From a virus (Duplodnaviria > Heunggongvirae > Uroviricota > Caudoviricetes), in the IMG/VR virus record IMGVR_UViG_2721755646_000007: DNA of 43,137 bases. One strand, written 5' to 3'. The position numbers were made by a program. This document shows, piece after piece, positions 21,001 to 30,000 of the stretch (its first letter is position 1; every line of letters begins with the position of its first letter).

Positions 21001-24000
21001 TGTTGTTCTGCGGGGCCGGTTTTTCGATGACATTTTCTTTCCTCTGGTGACAAGCTATATGGCGAGGATTTTACATGGCTGTGCTTCGTACGTTACCGGG
21101 CAGAATCAAAACTCTGAACACCCGGCGGGTGAATATTCTGAAGGGTGAACAGCGTCGTGTCAGTGGCAGTGCACGTGTTTCCCTCAAGCGTCATATCTGG
21201 CTCAGGGATGCCGGGCAGTGCTGTCTCTGTGGTCGTGTGGTTGACCTCTGTGACAGTGAACTCGATCACCGAATTGCACTTCAGTTCGGTGGTGGTAATG
21301 AGGAGACGAATCTCTGGACGCTCTGTACCGAATGCCATCGACAAAAGTCTGCTCGTGAAGCGGCGGGTGGTATGCCGGACCCGACGCTGCCGGAGGTGTC
21401 CGGAGGTCATGGCAGGGCAGACGATATCATCGGACTGTGACCCGCCCCGGGGGGGGGATCATCCGGCGAAAAAAACGATCGCTCCGGACACCGCGCCCCC
21501 TCTCACGCAGAGAAAAAATTCCCGTTTCAGGGCAGTTAACATGTTAACTGGCTGTCCGGGCATTTTTGCGGTTTTTATCTTTATTATTCAGTTTGTTGTG
21601 CGGAAAAAATGTTAACTGGCTTTTTCAGCAAATGTTAACCAGGCAGCAGTTAACATTTGCGGCATGAGATGCCGGGAAAAATGGGCTGAACCATACCCGG
21701 CTGAGTGCGTTCTGGACCCGGGAGGAGGCTGTGCTGACAACGCAAAAACGAAAATTTGCGCTGGCGCTCATGTCCGGGAAAAACAAAACAGCGTCAGCCA
21801 TTGCCGCCGGTTATTCGGCGAAGACCGCCAGGGTTAAAGGCTCGCAGCTGGCAAAAGATCCTGAGGTGCTTGCGTTTATAGCCCGTAAACAATGCGAGAC
21901 GGTGGAGGTGGATGAGGTTCCTGTTTACCGGCAGAAAAAATCAGAGCAGGAGGATAAACCCCGTCGCCGTGAGGCGGCTGCAATACCACAGCCGGACGAA
22001 ACAAATCCGGAGATGCCACCGCCCGTGGTGATATCTCCTGGTATTGAGTATATGGAGGACGGTCTTCCCGATCCGGTGAAAGCGATGGGGCGTCTTCTGG
22101 TGGAGAACATTAATACCGACCCCAGGCTGGCGCTGGATGCGGCTTATAAGCTGGCGCAGTTCACGCACCACAAAAAAGGGGATGCCGGTAAAAAATCGGC
22201 AAAAGGTGACGCGGCGAAAAAAGCGGCTAACCGTTTTGCGGTGCCACCACCACCCCGCCTGGTGGTGAATAATGATAATGAGGGCAACGGATGATACCTG
22301 TGTGGAGCACGGCCTGCCCGGACTGGGCAGAGCGCCTGAAAAAGGGGCTGTCGATTATTCCGGCTCCGATTTATCCGGAGCAGGCCGCACATGCCCTGGC
22401 GATTTTTAAACAACTGCGGATTGTGGATGCACCGGGCAGCCCGACGTTCGGGGAGTCCTGCGCACAGTGGGTGTTTGACCTGGTGGCGGCCCTGTTTGGC
22501 TCCTACGATGCGCAGACCGGTGTACGCCATATCAAGGAAGTTTTTATCCTTATCCCCAAGAAAAACAGCAAGTCCACGCTGGCTGCCGGGATCATGATGA
22601 CGGCGCTGTTACTGAACTGGCGGCAGGCGGCGGGCTACACCATTCTGGCCCCGACCGTGGAGGTGGCGGCTAACGCCTTCAACCCTGCCAGGGATATGGT
22701 ACGACGGGACGATGATCTGGATGACCTCTGTCAGGTGCAGACACATATCCGGACCATCACCCACAGGGTGACGGACACCACCCTGAAGGTGGTGGCTGCC
22801 GATCCGAATACGGTATCCGGTATCAAGTCCGTGGGGACGCTGATTGATGAACTGTGGTTATTTGGCAAGCAGTACAAAGCGGAGGACATGTTACGTGAAG
22901 CCATAGGCGGCCTTGCCTCCCGCCCGGAAGGGTTTGTGGTGTATACGACCACCCAGTCGAATGAGCCGCCAGCCGGGGTGTTCAGACAGAAACTGCAGTA
23001 CGCCCGGGATGTCCGTGACGGCAAAATTCATGATCCGCACTTTCTGCCGGTGATTTTTGAGCATCCTCCTGAAATGGTGGAAAGCGGGGCTCACCTGCTG
23101 ATGGAAAACCTCGCCATGGTTAACCCGAATCTCGGTTATTCGGTGGATGAGGCTTTTCTGTACCGGGAGTACCGTAAAGCCCGGGAGGCTGGTGAGGAAG
23201 CATTTCGTGGCTTCATGTCAAAACATGCCAATGTGGAAATTGGTCTTGCCCTGCGTTCTGACCGCTGGGCGGGTGCGGATTTCTGGGAGCAGCAGGGCAG
23301 GCGCGTCAGCCTGGACGATATCCTGCAGCGCGCTGATGTGGTGACGGTGGGGATTGACGGCGGGGGCCTGGATGATCTGCTGGGAATGTACGTGATTGGC
23401 CGTGACAGGGAAACCCGCGAATGGCTGGGCTGGGGCCATGCCTGGGCGCATGAAACCGCGGTGGTCCGACGGAAGAGCGAGGCGTCCCGGTTTCAGGATC
23501 TTGTTGCCTGTGGAGATATGACCATTGTCCGGCGTGTCGGGGATGACACGGCGGAAGTGGCGGAATATGTGCGTCGCATTCATGAGGCTGAGTTACTGGA
23601 CCATATCGGTATTGACCCGTCAGGGGTGGGGCAGATTCTGGATTCACTGGCGGAAGCCGGGATCCCCGACGGAATTGTGGTGGGGATAAGCCAGGGCTGG
23701 AAACTGGGCGGGGCCATTAAAACCACCGAGCGCAAACTGGCTGAAGGGGTGCTGGTGCATGGTGACCAGCCCCTGATGGCCTGGTGTGTCGGCAATGCCC
23801 GGGTGGAGCCTAAAGGTAACGCCATTCTTATCACCAAACAGGCCAGTGGACGGGGAAAAATTGACCCGCTGATGGCGCTGTTCAATGCGGTCTCCCTGAT
23901 GTCCCTTAACCCGGAACCGAAAAAGAAAGAATATGCGGTTTTTTTCATATAACCCTGTTCACACTGTAACCATCATGAACCGCTGCGGCGGTTTTTTTAT

Positions 24001-27000: not shown

Positions 27001-30000
27001 ACTGAAGATGACCGCTGAAATTGTCTGTTCGGTGTTCCGTGTCCCGGCCTACAAGATTGGCGTGGGACAACCGCCTTCCAGTGACAACGTGGAGGCGCTG
27101 GAGCAGCAGTATTATTCCCAGTGCCTGCAGACGCTGATTGAGTCCATTGAACTGTTACTGGATGAGGCGCTGGAAACGGGGGAAAACGAGAGTACAGAAT
27201 TTGATGTCACCACGCTGCTGAGAATGGACAGTGAGCGGCGCATGAAAACGCTGGGGGATGCGGTGAAAAATACGCTTCTCACGCCCAATGAGGCCCGTAA
27301 ACGGGAGAACCTGCCGCCCCTGGCCGGCGGTGATGCACTGTATCTTCAGCAGCAGAACTACAGTCTGGAGGCGCTGTCCCGTCGTGATGCCCGTGAGGAT
27401 CCGTTCGCGTCTGCCGGGAAAACAGTTTCATCACAGCTGCCTGACGGCGCATCTGACGGTAATAAGGCAATCAGTGAAACAGAGCATGATGCGGTGAAAG
27501 CGATGTTCAGGGGGGATACTGAGAAAATGACGGAACGGGAACTGTCCATTATTCGTGCACTGGGAGAAGAATTTTCCACAGTGCTGGCGGATTTACAGCG
27601 CACATTTGAGGAGAAAATAGCCGCGCAGGCACAAACGTTTGAAGAAAAACTGGCTTCTCAGTCTGTGGTATTACAGAAGTGCGTGACGGGTGATGATGTG
27701 CGTCCGATGCTTGAGCAGATGGTGAAAGAGGCAGTGAGCCATATTCCTGTTCCGCGCGACGGTCGTGACTACGATCCGGATGTTCTGCAGAAGGCGGTGA
27801 ATGATGCGGTTGCGAATATTCCGGTACCGGCAGACGGCAAAAGTATCACCCCGGATGATGTGCGTCCGATGCTTGAGCAGATGGTGAAAGAGGCAGTGAG
27901 CCATATTCCTGTTCCGCGCGACGGTCGTGACTACGATCCGGATGTTCTGCAGAAGGCGGTGAATGATGCGGTCGCGAAAATACCGGTACCGGCAGACGGT
28001 AAAAGTATCACTCCGGATGATGTGCATCCGATGCTTGAACAGATGGTGAAGGAGGCGGTAAGCCATATTCCTGTTCCGCGTGATGGTCGTGACTACGATC
28101 CGGATGTTCTGCAGAAGGCGGTTCTGGAGGCGGTGAGTGCCCTGCCGGCTCCGCAGGACGGGCGTGATGCCACGGCACTGGAAATACTCCCCGCCATTGA
28201 CGATCAAAAATCCTTTCCCCGGGGCTCGTATGCCACACACCAGGGTGGACTCTGGCGGGCGTATGAAAAAACGTACGGGATGCGGGGATGGGAATGCCTG
28301 GTTGACGGGGTGGCGGATATTGACGTCAGCATGACGGGTGAACGGTCGTTCTCTGTGGTGGTCCGGCAGAGCAGTGGCCAGCGTACGGAAAAAACATTTT
28401 CCCTGCCGGTGATGCTCTACCGTGGTGTGTTCAGAATCGGCGAAACTTACCACCCCGGCGATACGGTGACGTGGGGGGCTCGTTGTGGCACTGCAACAGT
28501 ATGACCGGTGATAAGCCCGGAGAAGCTCATTCATCAGGCTGGACTCTGGCTGCAAAACGTGGGCGGGATGCAGGAGGTGGAAAGTGACAGCATTACTGAC
28601 ACTGGAAGAAATCAAGGCACATCTGCGTGTTGACCATGACGCGGATGATGAGATGCTGATGGACAAGGTTCGTCAGGCTACCGCCGTGCTGCTGGCCTAC
28701 ATCCAGGGCAGCCGGGATAAAGTGATTAGTGAGGACGGTGAGCTGATCCCTGGTGAGGCATTAACCCGGATGAAGGGGGCTGCCATGCGACTGACCGGGA
28801 TGCTGTACCGGAATCCGGATCTTGCTGAGCGGGAAGACCTCGTGCAGGGGGAACTGCCGTTTTCTGTTTCCGTGCTGATTTACGATTTGCGTTGTCCGAC
28901 GGTGTTATGAGGAGGGGGAATGGCAATATCTGCAGGTCGTCTGACACAGATGATCAGTGTTCTGAACCCGGTGTTAACCCGTAATGCTGCCGGAGAAATG
29001 ACGGAAGAATGGGTGTCATGCGGGAAAATTCATGCGGATATCCGGGGCAGGAGCAGCCGGGAGCGGATGCAGTCCGGTGCGGAAATGGCGCAGGCGGAAA
29101 TCCGCATCTGGGTACGCGGTCAGTCTGGTCGTGAAATCACGGCGGCGTCACGACTTCATGTGCTGAGTGGTCCCTGGCGTGACCATGTCCTGAATGTCGT
29201 CGGGGTCCCGGTTCCGGATGCAACCGGCGGGCGTCTGGAAATTCTCTGTCGGCTGGGAGGGGAAAAATGATCGAAACCCTGCTGGATTTTTCGGGGCTGG
29301 AGGACATCAGCCGCGATTTGCAGCTTCTGAGTGGTGCGGAAAATAACCGGGTGCTGCGTGAGGCAACCCGTGCGGGTGCGAATGTGCTGAAAGAAGAAGT
29401 GGTGTCACGGGCACCGGTACGCAGGGGAAAACTTCGCCGCAATGTGGTGGTCCTTTCCCGGTGCTCCCGCGATGGCGGGATGGAATCCGGTGTGCATATC
29501 CGGGGTGTTAATCCGGACACCGGTAACAGCGATAACACCATGAAGGCGGATAACCCGCGCAATGCTTTCTACTGGCGGTTTGTGGAAATGGGGACCGTGA
29601 ATATGCCACCGCACCCGTTTGTGCGCCCGGCATTTGATGTGCGCAGTGAACAGGCGGCACAGGTGGCGATTGCTCGGATGAACCGGGCCATTGATGAGGT
29701 ACTGAGACGATGACGGAGGCGGATTTGTATCCTCATCTGGCGCATCTTGCCGGCGGGCAGGTGTACCCGTATGTGGTCCCCCTGCTGGATGGCAGGCCGT
29801 CGGTGGCGCTTCCGTGGGTGGTTTTCAGCCTGATTTCATCGGTGTCGGCGGACGTGATGGGCGGGCAGGCGGAGTCCTCAGTGTCGGTGCAGATAGACGT
29901 TTATGCCGGGACTGTGACGCAGGCGCGTCAGATACGTCAGGACGCCCGTGAAGCCATAATGCTGCTGGCCCCGGGATCCGTCAGTGAAATGCAGGACTAT

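Follow-up and report, generated by a model that had tools for sequence, protein, structure and literature searches.

Protease-capsid fusion gene ahead of the portal gene in the head module of a defective Escherichia coli O157:H7 prophage: a lineage-typical layout with a putative internal translation start

The stretch of DNA analysed here (the window: 43,137 nt, IMG/VR virus record IMGVR_UViG_2721755646_000007, Caudoviricetes) carries a phage head module in which one gene for prohead protease, delta/scaffold-like region and major capsid protein lies between the genes of the large terminase subunit (TerL) and the portal protein. Very probably, a defective lambdoid prophage of Escherichia coli O157:H7 is the source of this head and packaging module, which has the head genes of long-tailed Shiga toxin (Stx) phages and belongs to a large, old HK97-type branch of fixed gene order, in which the fusion arose by loss of a stop codon, the fused gene would give nested products, and the portal gene is joined to a second gene, here called X. 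The layout is real yet ordinary, being typical of its lineage and already annotated in public phage records. The position of the portal gene after the capsid gene is a hallmark of the lineage, since the order held in all 90 loci where the contig reached, and the fusion of protease and capsid switches on and off within the lineage. Modest new points, suggested by sequence comparison, are a conserved internal ribosome-binding site in the fused genes and a homopolymer-controlled fusion of portal and X.

Three open reading frames (ORFs) were listed at 22291-23952 (553 aa), 24016-25953 (645 aa) and 26165-28504 (779 aa), and their coordinates and Pfam domains bore out the order claimed in the initial annotation, i.e. 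terminase, protease-capsid fusion, portal. Peptidase_S78, Phage_capsid and Phage_portal each scored above the Pfam cut-off in the expected ORF, no stop or frameshift split protease from capsid within the 645-aa ORF, and the portal gene was located downstream of the fusion, not after TerL, by Pfam and by comparison with HK97 gp3. The claim that this single ORF unites prohead protease, delta/scaffold region and capsid protein agreed with Pfam, TIGR01554, AlphaFold and Foldseek. Labelled with Pfam and PHROG, the module reads small terminase subunit (TerS), TerL, 645-aa ORF, 73-aa ORF, 779-aa ORF, then neck and tail genes; the genes downstream of the 779-aa ORF were assigned as gp6-like adaptor, head closure, gp10-like, tail completion and major tail protein.

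The fusion ORF and its parts, with the predicted local distance difference test score of the AlphaFold model given as pLDDT, are the following.
24016-25953, plus strand: 645-aa ORF fusing protease, delta-like region and major capsid protein (Pfam S78 and Phage_capsid)
24016-24474, plus strand: prohead serine protease domain, residues 1-153, with predicted catalytic His55 and Ser110 (similarity to HK97 gp4)
24475-24591, plus strand: variable disordered linker, residues 154-192 (pLDDT <50 at 153-191; gap-rich, unconserved alignment columns)
24576-24594, plus strand: putative internal ribosome-binding site read from the sequence, TAAGGA, 10 nt, then an in-frame ATG (24592-24594, Met193)
24592-25023, plus strand: delta/scaffold-like helical region, residues 193 to about 336 (AlphaFold helices; TIGR01554)
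25024-25950, plus strand: HK97-fold major capsid protein proper, residues about 337-645 (Pfam Phage_capsid; Foldseek)

The reading of the 645-aa ORF as an S78 protease, a helical delta-like segment and an HK97-fold capsid protein was supported by several lines of comparison. The ORF starts with GTG, 5 nt past AGGAGG, and matched Pfam Peptidase_S78 (PF04586) at residues 48-152 with 34.7 bits (cut-off 21) and Phage_capsid at residues 386-635 with 52.7 bits (cut-off 24.2), while PHROG 617 ("major head protein") covered it from end to end (E 3e-261). TIGR01554, a model of the HK97 major capsid protein together with its delta domain, scored 78.3 bits against a cut-off of 27.5, with model position 3 falling on residue 204. 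The stricter protease equivalog TIGR01543 reached 46.4 of the 59 bits set as its cut-off, and the NCBIfam model of protease/major capsid fusions, NF045541, gave 54 bits against a cut-off of 525, over residues 48-287 only. The protease domain was 29% identical to HK97 gp4, with Ser110 aligned to S114 and His55 one position from H65; among 146 fused homologues, H55 was present in 146 and S110 in 145.

The AlphaFold model of the fusion, built from a 40-sequence alignment (mean pLDDT 77), consisted of a beta-rich domain at residues 18-153 (pLDDT about 85), a disordered linker at 153-191, long helices at 195-222 and 229-262 (pLDDT about 90) followed by further helices, a low-confidence stretch at 334-349, and an alpha/beta domain. 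Foldseek matched this last domain to the HK97-fold capsid proteins of Bxb1, HK97, D3 and RcGTA (E 4.5e-15 to 1e-9); with the whole-fusion model the top 50 matches were capsid proteins only, and the protease fold was not recovered among them. Kinship of the capsid moiety with HK97 gp5 is visible only by profiles and fold; the BLASTP comparison of the two was not significant. Residues 340-374 aligned weakly with gp5 107-141, right past the K103/S104 cleavage site of gp5, and a maturation cleavage that removes the delta region would be expected by homology near residue 332-337.

Gene order was compared over 90 loci, 80 of them from one-genome-per-species contigs, with ORFs labelled by profiles of the window proteins. 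The 80 loci span Alpha-, Beta- and Gammaproteobacteria and metagenome-assembled genomes (MAGs) of Flavobacteriaceae, Binatia, Phycisphaerae, Actinomycetales, Clostridia and others. The order was the same on every contig that extended far enough, namely (HNH), (TerS), TerL, protease(+)capsid, portal, X, adaptor, head closure, gp10-like, tail completion, and Salmonella and Serratia contigs with precomputed Pfam labels agreed with it. Protease and capsid formed one ORF in 67 of the 90 loci and two adjacent ORFs in 20. The order had been called atypical in the initial annotation; this is apt with respect to HK97 itself (TerL, portal, protease, capsid) but not within the very large lineage to which the window belongs, where the synteny comparison made it the rule.

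The fusion is likewise widespread. Full-length homologues of 644-648 aa, 73-78% identical, were found in Salmonella, Enterobacter, Klebsiella, Serratia, Pantoea and others. When 1.84 billion representatives of 50%-identity clusters were searched with the fusion, 12515 matched at E <= 1e-3, of which 1181 reached E <= 1e-30; the top 150 included about 130 full-length fusions of 615-700 aa with 38-54% identity. No separate scaffold gene was found in the module by Pfam search or in the profile-labelled related loci.

At the junction between linker and delta-like region, a conserved Shine-Dalgarno (SD) sequence and start codon suggest, from sequence comparison, that the fused gene gives two nested products. 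The stand-alone capsid proteins of relatives (456-478 aa) begin at the alignment column of Met193, with MNIAEQI... where the window has MNIGEQI..., and 56 of 61 non-redundant fused ORFs had an ATG or GTG at most three codons from this column (0.32 expected by chance). Pairing of SD and anti-SD at the junction averaged -7.7 kcal/mol, against -2.7 kcal/mol at 1919 other internal in-frame ATG or GTG codons (p = 9e-26, Mann-Whitney), and reached -10 kcal/mol or lower at 30% of the junction sites versus 0.3% of the other codons. The junction equals in strength the fused ORFs' own 5' starts (mean -6.9 kcal/mol). AAGGA was retained in E. coli, Salmonella and Serratia despite differing linker residues. 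In split loci the protease stop mostly lies 0-20 nt (up to about 100 nt) ahead of the capsid ATG, sometimes as an in-frame TAAGGA; because of this adjacency, one base change can fuse or un-fuse protease and capsid.

The 779-aa ORF, regarded as the portal gene in the initial annotation, is a portal gene in residues 1 to about 454, and the remainder is a second gene with a 3' end truncated by frameshift. Judged from sequence alignment, it is an HK97-family portal of about 454 aa plus the separate downstream gene X, joined by a slip-prone G tract. The relevant features are the following.
26165-27526, plus strand: HK97-family portal moiety, residues 1-454 of the 779-aa ORF (Pfam, TIGR01537, similarity to HK97 gp3)
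27510-27515, plus strand: G6 tract placing portal and X in one frame (alignment of the window with loci L007, L008 and L009)
27527-28587, plus strand: gene X moiety, comprising N-terminal helices, IPxPxDGxD repeats and a beta-structured C-terminal region with a CBM5/12-like motif; in frame at 27527-28504, the rest to 28587 being out of frame here
28473-28478, plus strand: G6 tract, G7 in intact relatives (alignment)

Pfam Phage_portal (PF04860) matched residues 54-382 with 272.7 bits (cut-off 39.1), which argues against membership of a non-portal family; TIGR01537 scored 349.5 bits against 112 on the intact allele of locus L008. The portal moiety was 27% identical to HK97 gp3 (E 8e-24), and its matches in the PDB were the portals of phiXacJX1, HK97 and RcGTA. 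With five instead of six G residues at 27510-27515, two genes with an ATGA overlap result, and G5 versus G6 was the sole difference at the junction. The X start ATG is at 27527, so that the G tract lies about 12 nt upstream of it, i.e. at SD distance. Split forms were present in BP-4795 and Stx2_EH1846 (portal of 454 aa plus X of 407 or 461 aa), and fused forms, as single ORFs of 807-861 aa, in FRIK2455, phage 2851 and YYZ-2008; the window is also G6. Contigs with the G6 context numbered 37 in IMG/VR, and those with the G5 context 23. In Salmonella, Serratia and almost every other locus, the portal has 443-478 aa and X is an ORF of its own behind it, as a rule overlapping by 1-14 nt. As a separate ORF of 186-731 aa between portal and adaptor, X was seen in about 70 loci, abutting the adaptor gene, and residues 455-779 of the window ORF aligned with the stand-alone X proteins. 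The 1-nt deletion at 28473-28478 causes a frameshift that replaces the last 36 or so residues by 8, moves the stop from 28587 to 28504 and removes part of a CBM5/12-like motif; because of it, the Prokaryotic Genome Annotation Pipeline (PGAP) flags the identical sequence as "frameshifted", and RefSeq marks the identical gene as a pseudogene.

A 7.2-kb block of the window was 100% identical to E. coli O157 chromosomes and was present in 1257 of 5426 complete E. coli genomes, at a median of 5 places per genome. Matches of 90-99% identity were obtained in 95 phage records as well, for the most part Stx1a-, Stx2c- and Stx2a-converting long-tailed phages. The identical RefSeq record names terminase subunits, a "phage major capsid protein", a hypothetical protein and a "phage portal protein" (frameshifted). 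The tape-measure ORF (31567-33621) is truncated, with 684 aa against 1080 aa in locus L001, and positions 34000-41000 consist of low-GC DNA (0.29-0.36) which in the 100%-identical O157 genomes holds the type III secretion effector genes espN and nleL and insertion sequence (IS) elements; the prophage is therefore defective.

The closest described relatives are Stx phages. BP-4795 (Marienburgvirus), 2851 and YYZ-2008 (Pankowvirus) and phi330 were 95-99% identical to the window in DNA from TerS to the adaptor, with the same gene order, and 95-99.8% identical in the protein of the capsid ORF; the head of vB_EcoS_phi330, a viable siphophage, measures about 55 nm (PMC12502783). Unlike these phages, the window is part of a defective prophage and carries the extra frameshift at 28473-28478; its G6 allele is shared with 2851 and YYZ-2008 but not with BP-4795, and its X has 2.7 copies of a 54-aa repeat, of which relatives have one or two units more. 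In BP-4795 (AJ556162), ORF56 is annotated as "putative major head protein/prohead protease" and is followed by ORF58, "putative portal protein". Further homologues were found in Salmonella phage FSL SP-016 and in Burkholderia, Stenotrophomonas, Ralstonia and Moraxella phages. In Pseudomonas phage PAJU2 (AP009624), ORF003, annotated as "prohead protease fused capsid protein", was 48% identical over the full 645 aa, and the order was terminase, fusion, small ORFs, portal, X (ORF007), adaptor; it differs in host and genus (Detrevirus) and in having portal and X as separate genes.

HK97 resembles the window in its portal_HK97 protein, its S78 protease with a His/Ser pair, an HK97-fold capsid protein after a helical delta-like region, the lack of a separate scaffold gene, and gp6/gp7/gp10/gp11-like neck genes that come next in the same order. 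It differs in having three separate head genes in the order TerL, portal, protease, capsid, where the window has a fusion and the portal after the capsid; the window has the extra gene X between portal and adaptor, and the capsid proteins have no BLASTP-level similarity. Fused protease-capsid genes have been recognised in Arthrobacter phage clusters AM, AU and AN and in Rhodococcus phage RRH1 (PMC5513430). These actinobacteriophage fusions and NF045541 have the same architecture as the window and form separate sequence families. In full-text literature searches, the papers that reported fused protease-capsid genes all dealt with actinobacteriophages, and none was found that discusses the portal-after-capsid order.

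Several other explanations were weighed against these comparisons. That the fusion is an artefact or pseudogene feature of a defective prophage, made by sequencing error or a frameshift of decay, would suit the degraded state of the prophage and the frameshift which the neighbouring portal-X gene does have, but the intact 644-648-aa ORF recurs in thousands of records across numerous genera, among them phages that form plaques or can be induced, the fusion stands in 67 diverse loci, and PHROG 617 models it at full length; with such conservation across genomes and related loci the artefact was rejected as extremely improbable. Equally remote is a recent local rearrangement or mosaic recombination in prophages of enterohaemorrhagic E. 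coli (EHEC) as the source of the portal-after-capsid order, an idea to which the highly mosaic nature of O157 lambdoid prophages lends itself. It was rejected by the synteny over 90 loci, which extends from Proteobacteria to MAGs of Flavobacteriaceae, Phycisphaerae, Binatia and Clostridia, and PAJU2 has the same order. Improbable, though less so, is that the long ORF represents a native "long portal", with its C-terminal 350 residues forming an integral crown or barrel extension. The allele most often met in E. coli is a form of 723-959 aa (6387 members in one cluster), PGAP and PHROG 2271 call long forms "portal protein", and the viable phages 2851 and YYZ-2008 have the long form; outside the E. 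coli group, however, portal and X were separate in 72 of the 72 loci with both, mostly abutting or overlapping slightly, within E. coli a single homopolymer G distinguishes the two states, both of them frequent, and X owns an ATG at 27527 with the G tract upstream.

The most serious competitor, which we consider possible but rather unlikely, is that only the full-length 645-aa protein is made, the internal SD and ATG being an unused relic of the ancestral capsid gene; each subunit would then carry its own protease into the prohead and be trimmed in cis or by its neighbours. The stronger SD (AGGAGG) at the 5' start in the window and the 5 of 61 fused homologues without ATG or GTG at the junction favour this alternative, and relics are to be expected, since one base change makes a fusion. 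On the other side, SD and ATG persist among fused ORFs at merely 35-55% protein identity, in an unconserved and gap-rich linker, a divergence over which unselected motifs would have decayed, and the SD strength at the junction is that of genuine starts. The reading placed against it, to which we give about even chances, combines a nested two-product gene, in which the internal ribosome-binding site would yield the bulk of the delta-capsid protein and the long form would be a minor, protease-delivering subunit replacing the targeting tail of HK97 gp4, with a G5/G6 switch of the portal between a 454-aa form and a form carrying X. Neither the two products nor the G5/G6 switch was mentioned in the phage records or literature searched. 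Some points weigh against it: the SD/ATG statistic at the junction takes no account of relatedness among the sequences, and split ancestors may have given rise to fusions more than once, so that part of the signal could be a recent relic, as a single base change suffices for each fusion. The internal SD of the window is itself modest (TAAGGA, 10-nt spacing, -6.2 kcal/mol) beside the strong AGGAGG of the 5' start. This degraded prophage copy, with its truncated tape measure, frameshifted portal-X and effector/IS insertions, may be non-functional, and we infer both the two products and the cleavage site from comparison of sequences.

The most likely course of events, drawn from HK97 biology and comparative sequence, would be as follows. 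In most members of the lineage, the stop between protease and capsid would have been lost, leaving one ORF for protease, linker, delta region and capsid protein. This ORF would give two products with a common C-terminus, one of 645 aa from the GTG at 24016 and a delta-capsid protein of 453 aa from the ATG at 24592. From both, a prohead would be assembled on the portal, and the long form, through its capsid moiety, would bring the His55/Ser110 protease inside. The protease would then remove itself, the linker and the delta region, with a cut near residue 332-337, to leave a capsid protein of about 310 aa that expands to the mature shell. Nested in-frame pairs of protease and scaffold genes are found in lambda C/Nu3 and herpesvirus UL26/UL26.5, in which the long product contains the protease and an abundant short one shares its C-terminus. 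The logic proposed for the window is the same, with the difference that the shared C-terminal part would here be the capsid protein, not a scaffold.

The X proteins fell into three parts in an alignment of 40 sequences, beginning with an N-terminal helix. The middle part is variable, with IPxPxDGxDG and collagen-like G-X-Y repeats, replaced in the E. coli group by 27-residue helical repeats, and the C-terminus is a conserved beta region ending in GDxVTWGGSxW...KPG...W.LAVKRGRDGKDG; over loci L002-L090, the family has the CBM5/12-like C-terminal motif and then KRGRDGKDG. Within X, the window has a tandem repeat.
27692-28122, plus strand: 162-bp (54-aa) tandem repeat in X, 2.7 copies (Tandem Repeats Finder, 95% matches, score 778)

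Copy number of the repeat varies, and relatives differ by a 162-bp insertion or deletion. No match of X exceeded the thresholds of NCBIfam and Pfam; Pfam CBM_5_12 (PF02839) came to 19.8-24.4 bits against a cut-off of 26.2 in three divergent X proteins and the intact portal-X (E 3e-5 to 8e-4). Whether searched with one X sequence or with a profile, the PDB gave weak chitin-binding-domain and coiled-coil matches only, those of the profile to the chitin-binding domains of chitinases at E 4e-4 to 0.7. An AlphaFold model from five near-identical sequences was unusable (pLDDT 39). These sequence features suggest for X a fibrous nature, probably as a trimer, and an association with the head or the portal vertex.

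The remaining features of the module are the following.
21075-21440, plus strand: HNH endonuclease gene ("HNH endonuclease" in a 100%-identical record; usual companion upstream of terminase genes)
21731-22294, plus strand: TerS, 187 aa (Pfam Terminase_2, E 1.7e-8; PHROG 641, E 1e-68)
22291-23952, plus strand: TerL, 553 aa (Pfam TerL_ATPase and TerL_nuclease; PHROG 9, E 2e-145)
23977-24003, plus strand: terminator-like hairpin with T run between TerL and the capsid gene (consensus scan)
25968-25988, plus strand: GC-rich hairpin without T run, directly after the capsid gene stop (fold -19.5 kcal/mol, z -2.7)
25998-26219, plus strand: 73-aa ORF between capsid and portal genes (PHROG 829, unknown function, E 3.7e-39)
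28584-28910, plus strand: head-tail connector, gp6-like, Ad1 (Pfam Phage_connect_1; PHROG 40)
28920-29270, plus strand: head closure protein, Hc1 (Pfam Phage_HCP, E 4e-17)
29267-29713, plus strand: HK97 gp10-like neck/tail completion protein (Pfam HK97-gp10_like)
29710-30054, plus strand: tail completion/terminator protein, gp17-like (Pfam Tail_completion_gp17)

In 52 related ORF sets, an HNH homologue precedes TerS and TerL. A G9 run lies at 21449-21457, between the HNH gene and TerS, and a G11 run at 14540-14550. The hairpins flanking the capsid gene are putative features, the fold of the one at 23977-24003 not being significant against shuffled sequences (z -1.1) and that of the one at 25968-25988 being so; HK97 has annotated putative terminators at comparable positions. 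The 73-aa ORF overlaps the portal start by 55 nt and is a "hypothetical protein" in related records; among the loci examined it was confined to the E. coli group, other lineages having a spacer of about 200-300 nt there.

The practical value of these results lies in correct annotation. The 645-aa gene of EHEC is variously named "major capsid protein", "prohead protease", "capsid and scaffold" and "hypothetical", and what is called a long "portal" ORF is in fact a pair of genes whose joining or separation depends on a homopolymer. The 162-bp repeats of X probably break short-read assemblies and so account for hundreds of "partial" portal entries in databases. For phage biology, this lineage offers protease and capsid genes that occur naturally both fused and apart in a constant order, a series which may be used to address how the prohead protease is targeted and dosed, an incremental question.

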